A stretch of DNA of 64,000 nucleotides, from NCBI RefSeq assembly GCF_988243305.1, contig NZ_OZ547137.1, one strand, 5' to 3'. Positions 1 through 31,454 of the stretch are shown here, piece after piece; position 1 is the first letter of the stretch, and each line of letters opens with the position of its first letter. The DNA is from a plasmid. A program made the translations under genes and the position numbers. Under the pieces are notes generated by a model. It saw only the letters and a program-made list of their open reading frames with translations. It did no database searches and was not told the DNA's origin.

Positions 1-888
1 GGCGGTGTCACCATTACGGGCGGCATTACTGGTGATACCCTCTTTCAGGGCATTCATGGTGACGTTCTGGCGCATAATCTGGCTGGCAGACTGACTGGAG
101 CCGTAGAAATAACTGTAACTGTCACTGACCAGTTGTCTGAATAACAGGTCCGGGTCCGGTCTGCCGCCAAATATCTGCTGCACATAATAATGCCAGGTCT
201 TGCCTCCCGTCTTTGTATCGAGATTCAGCCTGTCTTTCAGCGTGACCGACGCATCCTTACAGGTTATGAAATTATTATTGTTGTCATAAACGCCCCGTAG
301 CGGGCTGGGTCGGGAAAAAATCAGCGTGTAGGGGTCAGCGGAGGCCATCAGATCTTCCAGCGTGTATTTATGATTCAGGTAAATATCACCCAGCACGCAG
401 TTCTGGACGTAGTCCTGGAACAGATTGATGATTTCCGGATTCCGGGACAGGAAATCGGTGCTTTTCACAATCAGATTCGCCCCGAACAGCATGCCTGTCT
501 TGCTGTAGGTGACGCTGTCCGGTTGGGTGAATATCATCTCGTAGCTGACCACCATTGCATGCCCGATACGTGTCGTCAGTGAAAGTGGCATCGCCAGACC
601 GACCGGCACATTATCCACCCGATGGACTTTGACCAGGTCACTGTTATCAATAATCTGCACCGATGTACGGACATTAACCAGCAGGCTGATAAGCACAAAC
701 ACGGCCACCCAGCCCAGCAAATCCATCACGTTGTGCCGCTGTACCCACATCACGGCCACCGCGAGAACAGACAATGTGAGCGCAATTTTTTCGATGGAAT
801 CCCAGGTCCGCGTACTCATAAATGCCGCAATGGCGTTCAGGTTATTCCGCAACCACTCACCACCGGCAATCACATAAACTTCATTCAC
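1..888 (-). CDS. traG: TraG, N-terminal part (gene continues beyond window start); F-pilus assembly / mating-pair stabilisation
   Basis: Minus-strand translation from a GTG at 888 gives an F TraG-like N-terminus (VNEVYVIAGGEWLRNNLNAI...); start overlaps the traH stop; synteny. Confidence 0.8.
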   Translation of the reverse strand, partial: MNEVYVIAGGEWLRNNLNAIAAFMSTRTWDSIEKIALTLSVLAVAVMWVQRHNVMDLLGWVAVFVLISLLVNVRTSVQIIDNSDLVKVHRVDNVPVGLAMPLSLTTRIGHAMVVSYEMIFTQPDSVTYSKTGMLFGANLIVKSTDFLSRNPEIINLFQDYVQNCVLGDIYLNHKYTLEDLMASADPYTLIFSRPSPLRGVYDNNNNFITCKDASVTLKDRLNLDTKTGGKTWHYYVQQIFGGRPDPDLLFRQLVSDSYSYFYGSSQSASQIMRQNVTMNALKEGITSNAARNGDTA

Positions 889-5211: not shown

Positions 5212-7062
5212 TTACTGTCCTGCCTGTTTCAGCTGGTCAGCAATCTGCTCTTTCACTTTCTGCGTCAGAACGCCACTGTCCGGGATTTTCTGGTTATTCA
5301 TCAGGTCTTCGTAGAAGTTAGTGAAATCCAGTCTGTCGAACTGAATTTTCTGCAGCTCATCAACCGTAATCCCCCGACAGTCAGGATGCTTCGCACTGCC
5401 AAACCCGATACGCAACTGCCCGTTACGCCCCTGCTGCTGGACTATCTGCGCCAGCTTCGAATCAAACTGGCAGTAGCTGCGCTTTTTCTGCAGGCAGACC
5501 CCCAGCACCTTTTTCGAACAGAACTCACCCACACTCACCGTCAGTTTATTGTCCTTTGCCTTTCCCAGCGCCTTTTCTTCACTGTTGCACTTCGCCAGCC
5601 CCACATCCTGACCCCAGCCGCCATCCTTACAGCAGTTACTGAAGCCGGCTGCGGCCTTACGGCAGAATTTCGCCTCACCCGTGAAAGCCCTGACATCCAC
5701 ACCATTCAGGGCGGCAACATCCTTACCTGCGGCGGCAAGCGCAGCCAGCTGTGATACTGCTTCACCAAAATCACTGCTTTTTCCGCTCTGTGCCTTATCG
5801 CATTCACCGTCAAGGCAGAAGACATCACCACCACAGACCATCACTTTTCCTGATGTTTTTGACTCGCAGGAGTACGTGGCGTACTCATGCAGACAGGTTC
5901 CCTCATCGGAATAAAACGCGCACTGACGTGAGGCCAGCGTACAGGCCGGATTATCGACATATTTCTGACAGGTGCCGTTATCTGCGGACTGAGTGACATA
6001 TTTATCCCGGTATGCCCAGCATGCCTGTGTGATGCTCCAGGGTTTACCTTCCATCACACCCGTTTTCGTACCACCCGGCTCTGAACACTCAGTGCCTTTC
6101 AGCACGCCATCCGCTTTATTAAACGGACAACTCTCCACCCACTCCACCCGGGGAACCCATTCTTTATCACGGACCTTCATCCTGAGTTTCAGCGTAAAGG
6201 TGGAAGCACCACTGACAAGCGATTCATAGACTTTCCTGTCACCATTCCCGTGCGGGAGGCAATTACCGTTTGCAGTACAGCCACTACCGGTCAGAACCTG
6301 CCCCTGTGTGACAGAAAACCCGGAGGGCACAGGTATGGTGAAAGTCCCGCTCTGTCCTGTAACCAGTTGCACATTAAAGGTTGTGTTCATAAAGTCGTAA
6401 CGGGAGTTAAGGAAATATAGCCCTGCATGAACCGATAGCGAGGCACTTTCCACTGTCCCGGCAACAGGTACGGTAACGCTGAACACCAGTTTCAGACCGT
6501 TCATACTGAACCGGAACTGTGAGTGCGGTATCGTCACCTCACGATATTCATCCGTGTACTTCCAGTCTCCGGTGATACTGGCAGTCCGGGAGCAGTATTC
6601 CTCCACCATCGTGTCCCGCTCACAGGTATAGTTTGTGAACTCACTGCGGTTTATCTGCTGCGCACTGCACTGCTGCCCGGTGTTTCCCACAATGCTGTCA
6701 GCCCGGTTCACCACATCCCTGCCGGTCTGGATAAACGGCGCATCCGGTGAAAGAATGTCTTTCGGCTTGTTCATGAATGACTCTGTGATAGTTTTTCCGG
6801 TTTCACCGGTCGCCCATTCCGTGGTGCCGTCATTTTTCAGGCCGCCATCCCCGCCGGCAGTCACGCCACCGTAATATTTTGTCTCATCCGGATTCGCGTT
6901 ATAGCCGGGGATACTCTCCTGTGGCTTAAAGCCCTGAATACTGCTGCTTCCCTGCCCTTTGATCTGGTGAGCAAAATCAGAACCGGCCCGGTAACCACTG
7001 TTGCTGTCAGCCTGTGCCATACCGGTAACCAGAGCCAGTATCAGAGGTAAAATACGTTTCAT
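5212..7062 (-). CDS. traN: TraN, outer-membrane mating-pair stabilisation protein
   Basis: 616-aa Cys-rich secreted protein; synteny. Confidence 0.9.
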   Translation of the reverse strand: MKRILPLILALVTGMAQADSNSGYRAGSDFAHQIKGQGSSSIQGFKPQESIPGYNANPDETKYYGGVTAGGDGGLKNDGTTEWATGETGKTITESFMNKPKDILSPDAPFIQTGRDVVNRADSIVGNTGQQCSAQQINRSEFTNYTCERDTMVEEYCSRTASITGDWKYTDEYREVTIPHSQFRFSMNGLKLVFSVTVPVAGTVESASLSVHAGLYFLNSRYDFMNTTFNVQLVTGQSGTFTIPVPSGFSVTQGQVLTGSGCTANGNCLPHGNGDRKVYESLVSGASTFTLKLRMKVRDKEWVPRVEWVESCPFNKADGVLKGTECSEPGGTKTGVMEGKPWSITQACWAYRDKYVTQSADNGTCQKYVDNPACTLASRQCAFYSDEGTCLHEYATYSCESKTSGKVMVCGGDVFCLDGECDKAQSGKSSDFGEAVSQLAALAAAGKDVAALNGVDVRAFTGEAKFCRKAAAGFSNCCKDGGWGQDVGLAKCNSEEKALGKAKDNKLTVSVGEFCSKKVLGVCLQKKRSYCQFDSKLAQIVQQQGRNGQLRIGFGSAKHPDCRGITVDELQKIQFDRLDFTNFYEDLMNNQKIPDSGVLTQKVKEQIADQLKQAGQ

Positions 7063-18005: not shown

Positions 18006-18037
18006 AAGTTACCTCAATTTCGGATAAATGAATAAAA

Positions 18038-18439
18038 CTAGAGTGTATTAAATGTTATATCTTCCTCTTTATCTGCCTCCCTGAATATCTCCGAGTTATA
18101 AAAATCAGGAAACTTGATCAAATGATCAATAACTCTGTCTGCAGCCTCATCTGTTTTACACCATCCACTACGATTTTTTGCTGCAATAAGTAGCTGGTTA
18201 GTTTCATCATCCAGACGCATTGTCAGATACTTAACCAGCGACTTACCATAGATATTCCCTGCCCTGTTAAACTTTGGATAGCGGTGAAGATGATCTTTAA
18301 GTCTTATTACTGCCTCAAACGATCGACTTCTTCCGCTTCTGTTACTTGCCTCAATTAATAGACTTTCCACATCTACAGGTAATTTTAGTTTTACCATCTT
18401 ACCTGTTGCAGAACGTGTACCAAATCTTTTCAATAACAC
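18038..18439 (-). CDS. traY: TraY, RHH oriT-binding relaxosome accessory protein
   Basis: 133-aa ORF at the head of the tra operon; position and size. Confidence 0.65.
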   Translation of the reverse strand: MLLKRFGTRSATGKMVKLKLPVDVESLLIEASNRSGRSRSFEAVIRLKDHLHRYPKFNRAGNIYGKSLVKYLTMRLDDETNQLLIAAKNRSGWCKTDEAADRVIDHLIKFPDFYNSEIFREADKEEDITFNTL

Positions 18440-18531: not shown

Positions 18532-19281
18532 TTAACGCGTATTTATGATACACATAGCCTTCTCGTATAAATAATGAATAAACTTTTTATTGTAGAGTAA
18601 GATGATTAACTCATCTTTATTAGAAACAGAGAAGTAGTCGCATATCAGAGATGCGTGTTTCTTTGATGTGGAGATGGATATGTTTAATATTCTTGCTATA
18701 GCATTATGACTGATTCCGGTGCTATATAAGTAAAATACATCATTTACATATGATGATACAGAAGAATCATCACTCATTCTTCTGATTATATTTCTGATAT
18801 CATCACTGACAATCGTTTTTTGATTATAACTGTCTTTATGACGAACATGAGCAGCATCATAAAATTGCCACAGAATAATATTTCTGTGTCCATTAAGAAA
18901 TGACTGGACAGATATTGTCCAGAATCTGTTCTGAATAAAAACATCCTCTACAAGATTAAGATGCGTATGCTCATTCCTGTATGCTTCCATCTCTGTGACA
19001 GAGATCAATTCATAAAAATCTCTCTGCGACAGAAGCCATTTTTCAGCACTTTGATCTTGTGTAAGAAATGACTCATGAAACAGCGTATTGCAAAAAATAA
19101 ATTTTCCAGTTTCGTCCCTGATACAGGCTGGATTTGGATAATCCTGAATAACTGCCGTCAGATTTTCCAGCAGATCTATTTGACGAGCATGTTTTTGTTG
19201 AATACGATCCATCGGATACATAGGAACCTCCTCACAAAGGATTCTATGGACAGTCGATGCGGGGAGGAGAACTCCCTGCAT
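18532..19281 (-). CDS. traJ: TraJ, tra operon transcriptional activator
   Basis: Low-GC ORF between traM and traY; likely start at MYPMDRIQQK. Confidence 0.7.
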   Translation of the reverse strand: MQGVLLPASTVHRILCEEVPMYPMDRIQQKHARQIDLLENLTAVIQDYPNPACIRDETGKFIFCNTLFHESFLTQDQSAEKWLLSQRDFYELISVTEMEAYRNEHTHLNLVEDVFIQNRFWTISVQSFLNGHRNIILWQFYDAAHVRHKDSYNQKTIVSDDIRNIIRRMSDDSSVSSYVNDVFYLYSTGISHNAIARILNISISTSKKHASLICDYFSVSNKDELIILLYNKKFIHYLYEKAMCIINTR

Positions 19282-19405
19282 CGGCGATTTTCAAATTCAA
19301 ATTTTAACGTGGCATTAACCACGTAATTAATATACTAATTATCTTTCGTACTGTCACCTTTTTAAATCATAAAAACTCTGATATTTGAACGAAGTCAAAT
19401 TTCTT

Positions 19406-21909: not shown

Positions 21910-22187
21910 GATTGCAACAATCAGGAGGGATATTCATCACATCCGGTCAGCAGATCGCCCGGATATCGAGGCCGGCACGCTTAATCTGACGCAGGAACTG
22001 TTTGAAGTGATCGGCTTCCGCAATGTTGATATGGCGGAACTGCGTATCCACACCCCGGCTGAGCGCGTAGCTATAGCTGAAGGCCATCTTTTCCGGTGTT
22101 TTTTTCCCTCCCGGCAACAAGAATCGTGTACGACGCGGTGTTAACGTGGATATTTCGGGTACTCATCCAGCTTTCTCCTCTCTCTGG

Positions 22188-22720
22188 TTTTCAGCCCCCA
22201 TCATCTGTTGAGTTTCGGGAGCCGCGGTTTTGACGTTTTGCGGGGACCTGCTCTTTGTTCCCTCCGGTATTCACCATCACCTGTTTGAGAACCTTCGCCG
22301 CAAGGGGCATCACTGCCACGGCCTGACGCACCTGTCCTGGGCAGAACGCAAAATTTTTTACCGGGTTTTGGGTAAAAAATTTTGTGGGCTGTTCATTTAC
22401 CCTGGACAGTCAGTGCGGCAGGTTGTGGCTGTATCAGCCCCCGGCGACAGGGGCTTAAACAGGTGAATGGCACCGGACACAACAACGGGCAGGGACCCGC
22501 CGCAACGACGTGAAGCGCGGTTTGCGAAACGGCGTTGCGCCTTACATCCCGGCGGCCTTTTGCCGGGATGCAGGGAGCGCAGGCCACGGCGCGACAGAGG
22601 CGGCGCGACCGGAACGGTCGCTGCAAGCCCGGGGTTTCGCGTCAGGGATGGAAGCCCGCCAGGGGGACGCCCGGAAAAGACACTGCCAGGAGAACAACAA
22701 AACAGACAATAATCAGGGCA
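22188..22720. repeat. Frpo/ssi-like single-strand promoter repeat, copy 1
   Basis: Starts CAGCCCCCATCATCTGTTGAGTTTCGGGAGCCGCGGTTTTGACGTTTTGCGGGGACC; near-identical to copies at 27508 and 30850. Confidence 0.6.
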
Positions 22721-23016
22721 GCAGTAATCAGAGTCAGAACAGGAGGAAAAAGAGAATAATCAAAGAGAAGGTGATGTGATTTCTGACAGGTCATAAACAG
22801 AGAAGGCGGGGGAAAAGAACGGGCGCCGCAGGCGCACGTTCATCCCCGTTCCCGGAGGGAAACGGCCTTCCTGGCAGTCTGGTTGTTCATGCCCGTACAA
22901 TGCCAGCAAGGAGAAAGGGGCCACCGGCGAACCAGCAGCCCCTTTATAAAGGCGCTTCAGTGCAGTCAGACCAGCATCAGCCCTGAAAAGGCGGGCCTGC
23001 GCCCGCCTCCAGGTTG

Positions 23017-23175
23017 CTACTTACCGGATTCGTAAGCCATGAAAGCCGCCACCTCCCTGTGTCCGTCTCTGTAACGAATCTCGCACAGCGATTTTCGTGT
23101 CAGATAAGTGAATATCAACAGTGTGAGACACACGATCAACACACACCAGACAAGGGAACTTCGTGGTAGTTTCAT
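23017..23175 (-). CDS. hok: Hok-family toxin (52 aa) of a hok/sok type I TA system
   Basis: Minus-strand translation gives [52 protein letters not shown]; below the 60-aa track cut-off. Confidence 0.85.
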
Positions 23176-23233
23176 GGCCTTCTTCTCCTTGCGCAAAGCG
23201 CGGTAAGAGGCTATCCTGATGTGGACTAGACAT
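23021..23233 (-). CDS. mok: Mok, overlapping reading frame controlling hok translation
   Basis: 70-aa ORF overlapping hok in another frame and starting upstream. Confidence 0.55.
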
Positions 23234-23250
23234 AGGGATGCCTCGTGGTG
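23176..23250 (+). ncRNA. sok: Predicted Sok antisense RNA region
   Basis: Antisense to the mok start / hok leader; placed by analogy, boundaries approximate. Confidence 0.3.
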
Positions 23251-23454
23251 GTTAATGAAAATTAACTTACTACGGGGCTATCTTCTTTCTGCCACACAAC
23301 ACGGTAACAAACCACCTTCACGTCATGAGGCAGAAAGCCTCAAGCGCCGGGCACATCATAGCCCATATACCTGCACGCTGACCACACTCACTTTTCCTGA
23401 AAATAACCCGCTCATTCAGGCTGTTTACGGGTAATCTGTGTGATTGTTGCCGCA

Positions 23455-24174
23455 TCACGCCGCCTCCCGGAGTTTGTTCGGCACCATCCACCGCTCCATC
23501 TCACGGACAGCGTGACCGGCCTCTCTTGCTGCAAGACTGGCTTCCGCAATAACCTGCCAGAACGGCATATCCTGCCACTGCCAGCGTTCCATTCCGGCCA
23601 GTGACGGGAAACGCTCGCCCCACAGCCAGAACAGGGTTTCCAGGTCATGCTCTGCCACCCGGTCACTCCAGCGTGCATGCCAGCTTCCGACTGTTTCCGG
23701 CGAATGGAATGCCAGTTCGATTTCAGCCTGAGCGACCAGCGCCTGGTACGCACGGGCTTTCTGCTCTGCCTCCCGTGCCTGCTGGCGGCTGTACTTCTGC
23801 ATGACCAGCGCGGATTTATGGCGACTGCGCTCCCTGACGCGGAACCGCACCGACGGAAACAACCGCTCTGCTGCATCACCGGGAAGGGGAAGGAGGCAGA
23901 CCTCGCCCTGTGTTTCAATCAGCACATCGACGGCATACAGCCACTGAAGACGGTTGCCGTGCAGTTCTTCTGCGGTCAGGGACGGCATGAAAAATCGCAG
24001 GTCAGACAGCGATATCCTGCGGCTTCCGTTCAGACAGCGGAAAAACGCCCCCGCATACGGATATTCCGCCAGCGTGTTACCCTGATGGCGGCGTTTTTCT
24101 GTCTCCGCCACCGCCTGCCATGCGGCCTGTTGCTCTGTGCAGAGGGGAACCAGTGCCTGTGAACGTACGCTCAT
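23455..24174 (-). CDS. psiA: PsiA
   Basis: 239-aa ORF immediately downstream of psiB, overlapping its stop. Confidence 0.85.
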
Positions 24175-27507: not shown

Positions 27508-27962
27508 TGTTTTCAGCCCCCATCATCTGTTGAGTTTCGGGAGCCGCGGTTTTGACGTTTTGCGGGGACCTGCCTTTTGTTCCCTCCGGTATTCACCATC
27601 ACCTGTTTGAGAACCTTCGCCGCAAGGGGCATCACTGCCACGGCCTGACGCACCTGTCCTGGGCAGAACGCAAAATTTTTTACCGGGTTTTGGGTAAAAA
27701 ATTTTGTGGGCTGTTCATTTACCCTGGACAGTCAGTGCGGCAGGTTGTGGCTGTATCAGCCCCCGGCGACAGGGGCTTAAACAGGTGAATGGAACCGGAC
27801 ACAACAACGGGCAGGGACCCGCCGCAACGACGTGAAGCGCGGTTTGCGAAACGGCGTTGCGCCTTACATCCCGGCGTCTTTTTGCCGGGATGCCGGGAGC
27901 GCAGGCCACGGCGCGACAGAGGCGGCGCGACCGGAACGGTCGCTGCAAGCCCGGGGTTTTCA
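27508..27962. repeat. Frpo/ssi-like single-strand promoter repeat, copy 2 (upstream of ssb)
   Basis: About 450 bp matching copies 1 and 3 up to the GGGGCTTAAACAGGTGAATGG...CGCTGCAAGCC block. Confidence 0.6.
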
Positions 27963-30619: not shown

Positions 30620-30849
30620 AAATGGATTCCTTATGACAGTTTGGTAACAGTGCCTTAAAGACTGGTTGCACAGTCTCTTCGGCGTGGATTAAGCAGGTCC
30701 CTGACCTGCTTTTTTCATATCTGCGTCTGACGTTCTCCGGTGTATTCCTCCTTCTGTTCCTGCGTTCTCATTACCTGCCAGCAGGATGCTGACAGAACAC
30801 ATAAATGCGTATTGCCGGAGCCTGAAATAAATCCTGATTTTTAAAGAAC

Positions 30850-31380
30850 ATCACCCGTTGAGTTTCGGGAGCCGCGGTTTTGACGTTTCGCGGGAACCTG
30901 CTGCTGTATTCCCTGTGGTATGAACTTCACCCGTTTGAGAACCTTCGCCGCAAGGGGCATCACTGCCACGGCCTGACGCACCTGTCCTGGGCAGAACGCA
31001 AAATTTTTTACCGGTTCTTGGGTAAAAAATTTTGTGGGCTGTTCATTTACCCTGGACAGTCAGTGCGGCAGGTTGTGGCTGTCTATGCCCCCGGCGACAG
31101 GGACTCATACGGGTGTGTGGCACCCGGCAGGCAATGAGCAGGGACCCGCTGCAACGACGTGAAGCGCGGTTTGCGAAACGGCGTTGCGCCTTACATCCCG
31201 GCGTCTTTTTGCCGGGATGCCAGGAGCGCAGGCCACGGCGCGACAGAGGCGACGCGACCGGAACGATCGCTGCAAGCCAGGGTTTCGCGTCAGGGATGGA
31301 AGCCCGCCAGGGCGGAGACAGCTTCGCTGGCTCCGTTCACGACAGCCCGCCCCGCCAGGGGGACGCCCGGGAAAGCCATA
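30850..31380. repeat. Frpo/ssi-like single-strand promoter repeat, copy 3
   Basis: Same core as copies 1 and 2; ends in a purine-rich GAAGAG tract (31385-31430). Confidence 0.6.
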
Positions 31381-31454
31381 AACAGGAGAGGAACGGAAAG
31401 AAGAAGAGGAAGAAGAGGAAGAGTAAGCGCACCGTGAAGGACGTGGAGTAAAAA

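Follow-up and report, generated by a model that had tools for sequence, protein, structure and literature searches.

Closest described systems and identity of the locus

The closest described relatives of the locus analyzed here are hok/sok (parB) of plasmid R1, its counterpart on R100, and flmA/flmB/flmC of F. Post-segregational killing, the half-lives of the RNAs, and the steps involving RNase III are known for R1 (PMC9841398, PMC4147584). In a mutational analysis of the R1 locus, Le Rhun et al. (PMC9841398) name individual nucleotides of the system, including the anti-Shine-Dalgarno (aSD) positions A70, G71, C72, and C74, and report that mutating G345 or C358 abolishes the truncated hok mRNA. 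The srnB/srnC locus of F, pndA/pndB of R483, and the chromosomal hokA-E/gef loci have the family and the regulatory logic in common with the locus (PMC4147584), but they represent subfamilies other than the one found here.

We analyzed a 64,000-nucleotide stretch of plasmid DNA (NCBI RefSeq assembly GCF_988243305.1, contig NZ_OZ547137.1), referred to as the window, in which an initial annotation had marked positions 23017 to 23260 as a hok/mok/sok type I toxin-antitoxin locus. A Hok toxin, a Mok equivalog, a leader matching RF01794, an antisense hairpin, and the 5'/3' fold-back of the mRNA are all present, and this is almost certainly an R1/R100-type hok/mok/sok locus in intact form, a type I toxin-antitoxin system for post-segregational killing carried by the leading region of a conjugative, F-like plasmid. 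The functional locus exceeds the span originally marked, extending from about 22908 to 23384; positions 23017 to 23260 do hold hok and mok, but they include no more than 38 nt of the 66-nt Sok and omit the hok promoter, the 5' leader (tac and ucb), and the 3' untranslated region (UTR; the terminal hairpin and fbi). The locus is already known as a classic plasmid-addiction module, and nothing about it is biologically new. Sequence identity, family membership, overlap of the open reading frames (ORFs), the closed fold, antisense geometry, conservation, and covariation were computed here; the killing and RNA stability behavior is assumed from R1, given that the window has the same sequence as R100 across the locus and matches R1 at every named position.

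A 611-bp query surrounding the locus is 100% identical to R100 (NC_002134), with no difference found, and to many other records, and the R100 locus is labeled "type I toxin-antitoxin system Hok family toxin" in RefSeq. The comparison with R1 covers the positions named by Le Rhun et al. (PMC9841398): with +1 placed at 23348, all 30 named nucleotides agree with the window, among them G4, C5, T6, G64, A70-C72, C74, G105, A106, T117, and G118, with G176, T204, G311, T330, G332, G345, and C358 as further examples, and the 12 named Hok and Mok residues, including Mok Q15, G16, E17, and E18, agree as well. The 52-aa Hok, the 70-aa Mok, the -10 box, the tac/fbi and ucb/Shine-Dalgarno (SD) pairs, the 3' hairpin, and the antisense geometry are the same as in R1/R100.

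Among the matches listed, at least 1,187 plasmid records are at least 99% identical to the 611-bp query, most of the listed matches being conjugative MOBF plasmids of Escherichia, Klebsiella, Salmonella, and Shigella, and homologues of the locus occur in at least 5,000 records. Over its 14-kb leading region, the window shares 99.9% identity with E. coli plasmids such as NZ_CP139842, and this region is collinear with the leading region of F (NC_002483) at 91 to 98% identity. The flm locus of F occupies the same place, following psiA and flanked by the Frpo1 and Frpo2 regions; across the mRNA it is 93.75% identical to the window locus, with identical tac, fbi, and 3' UTR, and its Hok differs by one amino acid (H39 in the window and Y in F, codons CAC and TAC). 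More distant Hok/Gef loci on IncF plasmids of Klebsiella, Enterobacter, and Salmonella are 80 to 85% identical and share the fold, with invariant end-pairing boxes and compensatory changes, whereas their coding sequence and Sok region have diverged, and several carry an extra codon near the Hok C terminus.

The hok and mok reading frames

The toxin gene and the overlapping leader frame lie on the minus strand, and mRNA positions are counted from +1 at 23348.

23017-23175, minus strand: hok toxin gene, 52 aa, stop codon included in the coordinates; AUG at hok mRNA nt 174-176, UAG at nt 330-332
23185-23188, minus strand: hok Shine-Dalgarno sequence GGAG, hok mRNA nt 161-164
23021-23233, minus strand: mok reading frame, 70 aa; AUG at nt 116-118, stop at nt 326-328

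The initial annotation had read the 52-aa minus-strand frame as Hok, and this reading holds: the frame aligns with Hok proteins over its full length, matching Pfam PF01848 (HOK_GEF) at 76.5 bits (E = 1.2e-21, cutoff of 22) and the NCBIfam Hok subfamily NF007279 at 126.4 bits (cutoff of 73), with residues 1 to 52 of 52 covered. The HokA model matches the same protein weakly, at 44.6 bits, under its cutoff of 89. A hydrophobic segment lies near the N terminus (approximately residues 8 to 26), and read-through of the hok stop codon would add 17 aa, as has likewise been reported for R1 (PMC9841398). The overlapping mok frame had also been noted correctly; Mok matches PF17496 at 140 bits (E = 2.6e-41) and the NCBIfam equivalog NF010277, "modulator of post-segregation killing protein," at 151.6 bits (cutoff of 110). 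Judged by these family matches, the hok and mok frames are not chance ORFs. The mok frame begins 58 nt before the hok AUG, in a different frame from hok, and spans the hok SD and start codon; the geometry for translational coupling with hok is present in the overlap, and the coupling itself is predicted.

The locus had been described as falling below the 60-aa reporting threshold of the ORF track, which is true of hok (52 aa, or 59 aa if the frame is counted from an upstream TTG) but not of mok, which at 70 aa would be listed. A 52-aa toxin gene and a noncoding antitoxin are both invisible to an ORF track that begins at 60 aa; the locus should therefore be annotated as such, so that the stretch following psiA does not look devoid of genes.

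When every six-frame segment of the window was searched with phmmer, no second hok-family gene (srnB- or pnd-like) emerged, the best other match having an E value of 0.38. A terminator-like site at 23133-23121, within hok, was rejected as a chance match; it sits inside a conserved hairpin of the coding region. The RefSeq entries for R100 (6319-6444) and F (18010-18135) give Hok as a 126-nt, 41-aa coding sequence (CDS) starting from the GTG of codon V12, equivalent to positions 23017-23142 of the window; the established protein is 52 aa, with its ATG at window position 23175.

Promoter and mRNA elements

The elements of the hok transcript were located on the minus strand as follows.

23355-23384, minus strand: hok promoter, -35 TGGTCA (23384-23379), 18-nt spacer, -10 TATGAT (23360-23355)
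23348 to 22951, minus strand: full-length hok mRNA, 398 nt, 5' GGCGCUU ... GAAGCGCC 3'
23342-23348, minus strand: tac element GGCGCUU, hok mRNA nt 1-7
22951-22957, minus strand: fbi element AAGCGCC, hok mRNA nt 392-398, the 3' partner of tac
23272-23278, minus strand: ucb/anti-SD box GCCCCGU, hok mRNA nt 71-77
23241-23244, minus strand: mok Shine-Dalgarno sequence GAGG, nt 105-108, in which G105 and A106 match the R1 numbering
22990-23007, minus strand: 3' terminal stem-loop GGCGGGC GCAG GCCCGCC, nt 342-359, which ends the truncated 361-nt mRNA
22908-22945, minus strand: 14-bp hairpin followed by UUUCUCCUU, directly 3' of fbi, -23.8 kcal/mol

A length of 398 nt for hok mRNA reportedly comes from papers of the Gerdes laboratory. 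The hok promoter was found by a consensus scan with 9 of 12 consensus matches, and its TATGAT lies at -12 to -7 from +1 at 23348, the placement reported for R1 hok (PMC9841398). The transcript ends assigned to this copy of hok/sok are predicted ones, taken over from the literature. The hairpin and U-rich tail at 22908-22945 probably act as the intrinsic terminator, which would make the primary hok transcript about 441 nt long; since R1 hok mRNA is seen as two full-length bands (PMC9841398), this longer transcript may equal the second of them.

Sok antisense RNA

Opposite the hok leader, the plus strand carries the antisense RNA and a putative promoter for it.

23223-23288, plus strand: Sok antisense RNA, about 66 nt, complementary to hok mRNA nt 61-126
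23189-23217, plus strand: putative sok promoter, -35 TTGCGC (23189-23194), 17-nt spacer, -10 TATCCT (23212-23217)

The coordinates of Sok span ucb, the mok SD, and the mok AUG. The RNA folds into one long hairpin with about 13 unpaired 5' nt over the mok AUG and a 3' U-rich tail; at -26.5 kcal/mol (z = -6.07), this fold was equaled by none of 200 shuffled sequences. The window's antisense sequence is presumably the same as the published R1 Sok sequence. We infer the exact ends of Sok from the promoter spacing and the U-tail. The promoter scan, at its consensus threshold, gave no plus-strand site for sok; the putative promoter was read directly from the sequence and is weak, with 7 of 12 consensus matches. 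The TTGC of its -35 box and positions 2, 3, 5, and 6 of its -10 box are invariant in nine aligned sequences, and this conservation, together with the direct reading, points to TTGCGC-17-TATCCT as the candidate sok promoter.

The Rfam model RF01794, named "sok," matches the locus at 88.9 bits (gathering score of 59) over model positions 1 to 157 of 157. The match runs from 23349 to 23173 on the minus strand, in the same sense as hok, and reaches as far as the hok AUG, indicating that the model describes the hok leader and not the antisense RNA. We therefore rejected it as evidence for Sok, as it is on the wrong strand, and counted it as support for the locus and its leader only.

If RF01794 were used for automatic annotation, "sok" would be assigned to the wrong strand at a length of 177 nt, compared with 66 nt for the antisense RNA. 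A 71-aa plus-strand ORF at 23219-23434 overlaps sok and lies opposite the hok leader, and one public record, CP023934, annotates a "protein sok" CDS in this region; this CDS is most likely an annotation artifact of the noncoding antitoxin.

Folding of the hok mRNA and covariation

The initial annotation had pointed to RNA folding of the region as a check, and both the Sok hairpin described above and the tac/fbi fold-back of the hok mRNA were found. The 398-nt mRNA has a minimum free energy (MFE) of -175.3 kcal/mol (z = -8.07), and none of 100 shuffled sequences was equally stable. Nucleotides 1 to 7 (tac) pair with nt 392 to 398 (fbi) in the MFE structure with probabilities of 0.976 to 1.0, and this pairing is also retained in the 441-nt fold. 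The mok SD is sequestered in the full-length fold by ucb, through the pairs 71-109, 72-108, 73-107, and 75-105, each with a probability of at least 0.995, and the helix is completed in the MFE structure by pairs 76-104 and 77-103. The 3' stem-loop at nt 342-359 forms in both the full-length and the truncated folds. When the last 37 nt were removed, the unconstrained MFE structure of the resulting 361-nt RNA differed from the published open fold; with the tac/ucb pairs enforced, the open form lay 1.6 kcal/mol above the MFE. Under this constraint, A106-G108 of the truncated mRNA are paired to nt 119-121 (dcb), and an SD/dcb hairpin forms at nt 106-121.

Covariation was scored on an alignment of nine sequences, comprising the window and eight homologues of 80 to 94% identity (F flm and plasmids of E. 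coli, Salmonella, Enterobacter, K. pneumoniae, and K. variicola), using the MFE pairs of the window and, as controls, slid positions and 500 shuffles. Across this alignment, 88.7% of the cells were paired, compared with 35 to 45% in the slid controls, and 13 pairs had changed on both sides, a number reached by none of the 500 shuffles and compared with 0 to 5 in the slid controls. Four of the compensated pairs are in the helix enclosing the 3' hairpin, and four are in a coding-region hairpin. The tac, fbi, and ucb/SD core is invariant in all nine aligned sequences, with coding regions that are only about 80% identical. No tac/fbi covariation was there to be seen in the nine-sequence alignment, as both boxes are invariant; for these two elements the alignment therefore speaks for conservation and not for covariation.

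Proposed mechanism

The steps given here are those of the established R1 model (PMC9841398, PMC4147584) mapped onto the window. Transcription from the hok promoter would yield a stable mRNA starting at 23348, and in the full-length message fbi would pair with tac and ucb would hide the mok SD, such that neither ribosomes nor Sok could bind. Slow trimming of the 3' end to the GC hairpin at nt 342-359 would strip off fbi, after which the RNA would refold, tac pairing with ucb and leaving the mok start region exposed. As long as the cell retains the plasmid, the 66-nt Sok, which is short-lived, would pair with this exposed region and block translation of mok and, through coupling, of hok, and the duplex of Sok and hok mRNA would be destroyed by RNase III. 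Should the plasmid be lost, Sok would decay first, Mok and Hok would be translated, and the 52-aa membrane peptide would kill the cell. The module is carried by thousands of IncF plasmids of E. coli, Klebsiella, Salmonella, and Shigella, and it helps to retain resistance plasmids in populations.

Genomic context and possible early expression

The features surrounding the locus that matter for its interpretation are the adjacent gene and a set of direct repeats in the leading region.

23455-24174, minus strand: psiA (PF06952), upstream of hok
22187-22698, 27509-27958, and 30837-31394: three Frpo-like direct repeats of about 450 to 560 bp

The locus had been placed between the first Frpo-like repeat and psiA, and these coordinates bear that out. 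The gene order, psiB-psiA-hok/sok, a Frpo-like repeat, a DUF932 gene, an SLT gene, oriT, and traM, is that of R100 and F. The first and second Frpo-like copies match the Frpo1 and Frpo2 regions of F, and copy 1 (22187-22698) forms a long single-stranded DNA hairpin (z = -10.95). The presence of hok/sok between near-identical Frpo repeats is an arrangement already discussed for F. A third Frpo-like repeat, 84 to 95% identical, is present in the window; F has been described with two such elements.

The leading-region genes, including hok, have as their template the transferred strand (plus in the window), whereas the template for Sok is the complementary strand, and a scan revealed no terminator-like site between psiA and hok. 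It is therefore conceivable that, once the plasmid enters a recipient, transcription reading through from the upstream Frpo-like single-strand promoter at 27509-27958 could yield hok-containing RNA before Sok is made, although we consider this very unlikely. If it did occur, a stable, self-locked hok message might commit the recipient to establishment of the plasmid, or bring about the death of cells in which the entering plasmid is destroyed, and the locus would then have a role in establishment or anti-defense beyond classical addiction.

Alternative explanations

Chromosomal hok loci are often degenerate (review, PMC4147584), and several of those in E. coli K-12 have been inactivated by insertions or point mutations; the window could in principle hold a similarly decayed, nonfunctional remnant of hok/sok. 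Such a remnant is hard to reconcile with the uninterrupted state of both frames, both promoters, tac, fbi, ucb, the SD, and the 3' hairpin, or with the wild-type base at all 30 R1 positions whose mutation abolishes toxicity or expression. Near-identical sequence is, moreover, kept on more than 1,000 plasmids of several genera, which points to maintenance and not to decay, and we regard a remnant as extremely improbable. Assignment to another specificity group of the hok family (the F flmA/B/C, srnB/C, or pndA/B type), with an antisense RNA that is not Sok, deserves attention because the locus sits exactly at the position of flm in F, with flanks 98 to 100% identical to F. The locus is nonetheless identical to R100, and 20 of its 26 differences from F flm, two indels included, fall within the 66-nt Sok-complementary segment, nt 61-126 (about 30% divergence there versus about 2% elsewhere). 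This clustering suggests a diversified and separate antisense specificity and marks the window locus as R1/R100-type, not flm type. As a test of the specificity group, the antisense segment of the window proved identical to that of R100 and distinct from flmB of F; the R1-named positions within nt 61-126 also match, though these do not discriminate R1 from F. We give an assignment to another group almost no credence.

A functional module whose main selected role is something other than addiction, either guarding the segment of the leading region between the Frpo repeats or acting in establishment or against competitors, is a different kind of proposal. The locus is indeed bracketed by repeats 22187-22698 and 27509-27958, which are 98 to 99% identical and lie 5,322 bp apart, and Couturier et al. 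propose that flmAB safeguards the corresponding interval of F from recombinational loss (PMC9849209); in addition, Samuel et al. found toxin-antitoxin genes to be enriched in leading regions (PMC11541004). The molecular mechanism would, however, be unchanged under this proposal, which therefore adds to the explanation by addiction and does not replace it; as the main selected role, we think it unlikely. The reading that we prefer remains an R1/R100-type addiction module.

Other RNA features in the window

Rfam matches elsewhere in the window include AS-traG (84-169, plus strand), the FinP/traJ 5' UTR pair (19215-19324, both strands), the Hfq-binding RNA STnc490 (56893-57017, plus strand), and an ALIL pseudoknot, the IS3-type frameshift element (57916-58014, plus strand). 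Group II intron matches were also obtained on the minus strand for D1-D4 pieces (38711-38997) and for domain V/VI (48232-48303); the order of these pieces is wrong for a single minus-strand intron, and it is therefore likely that they belong to two separate introns or intron fragments.
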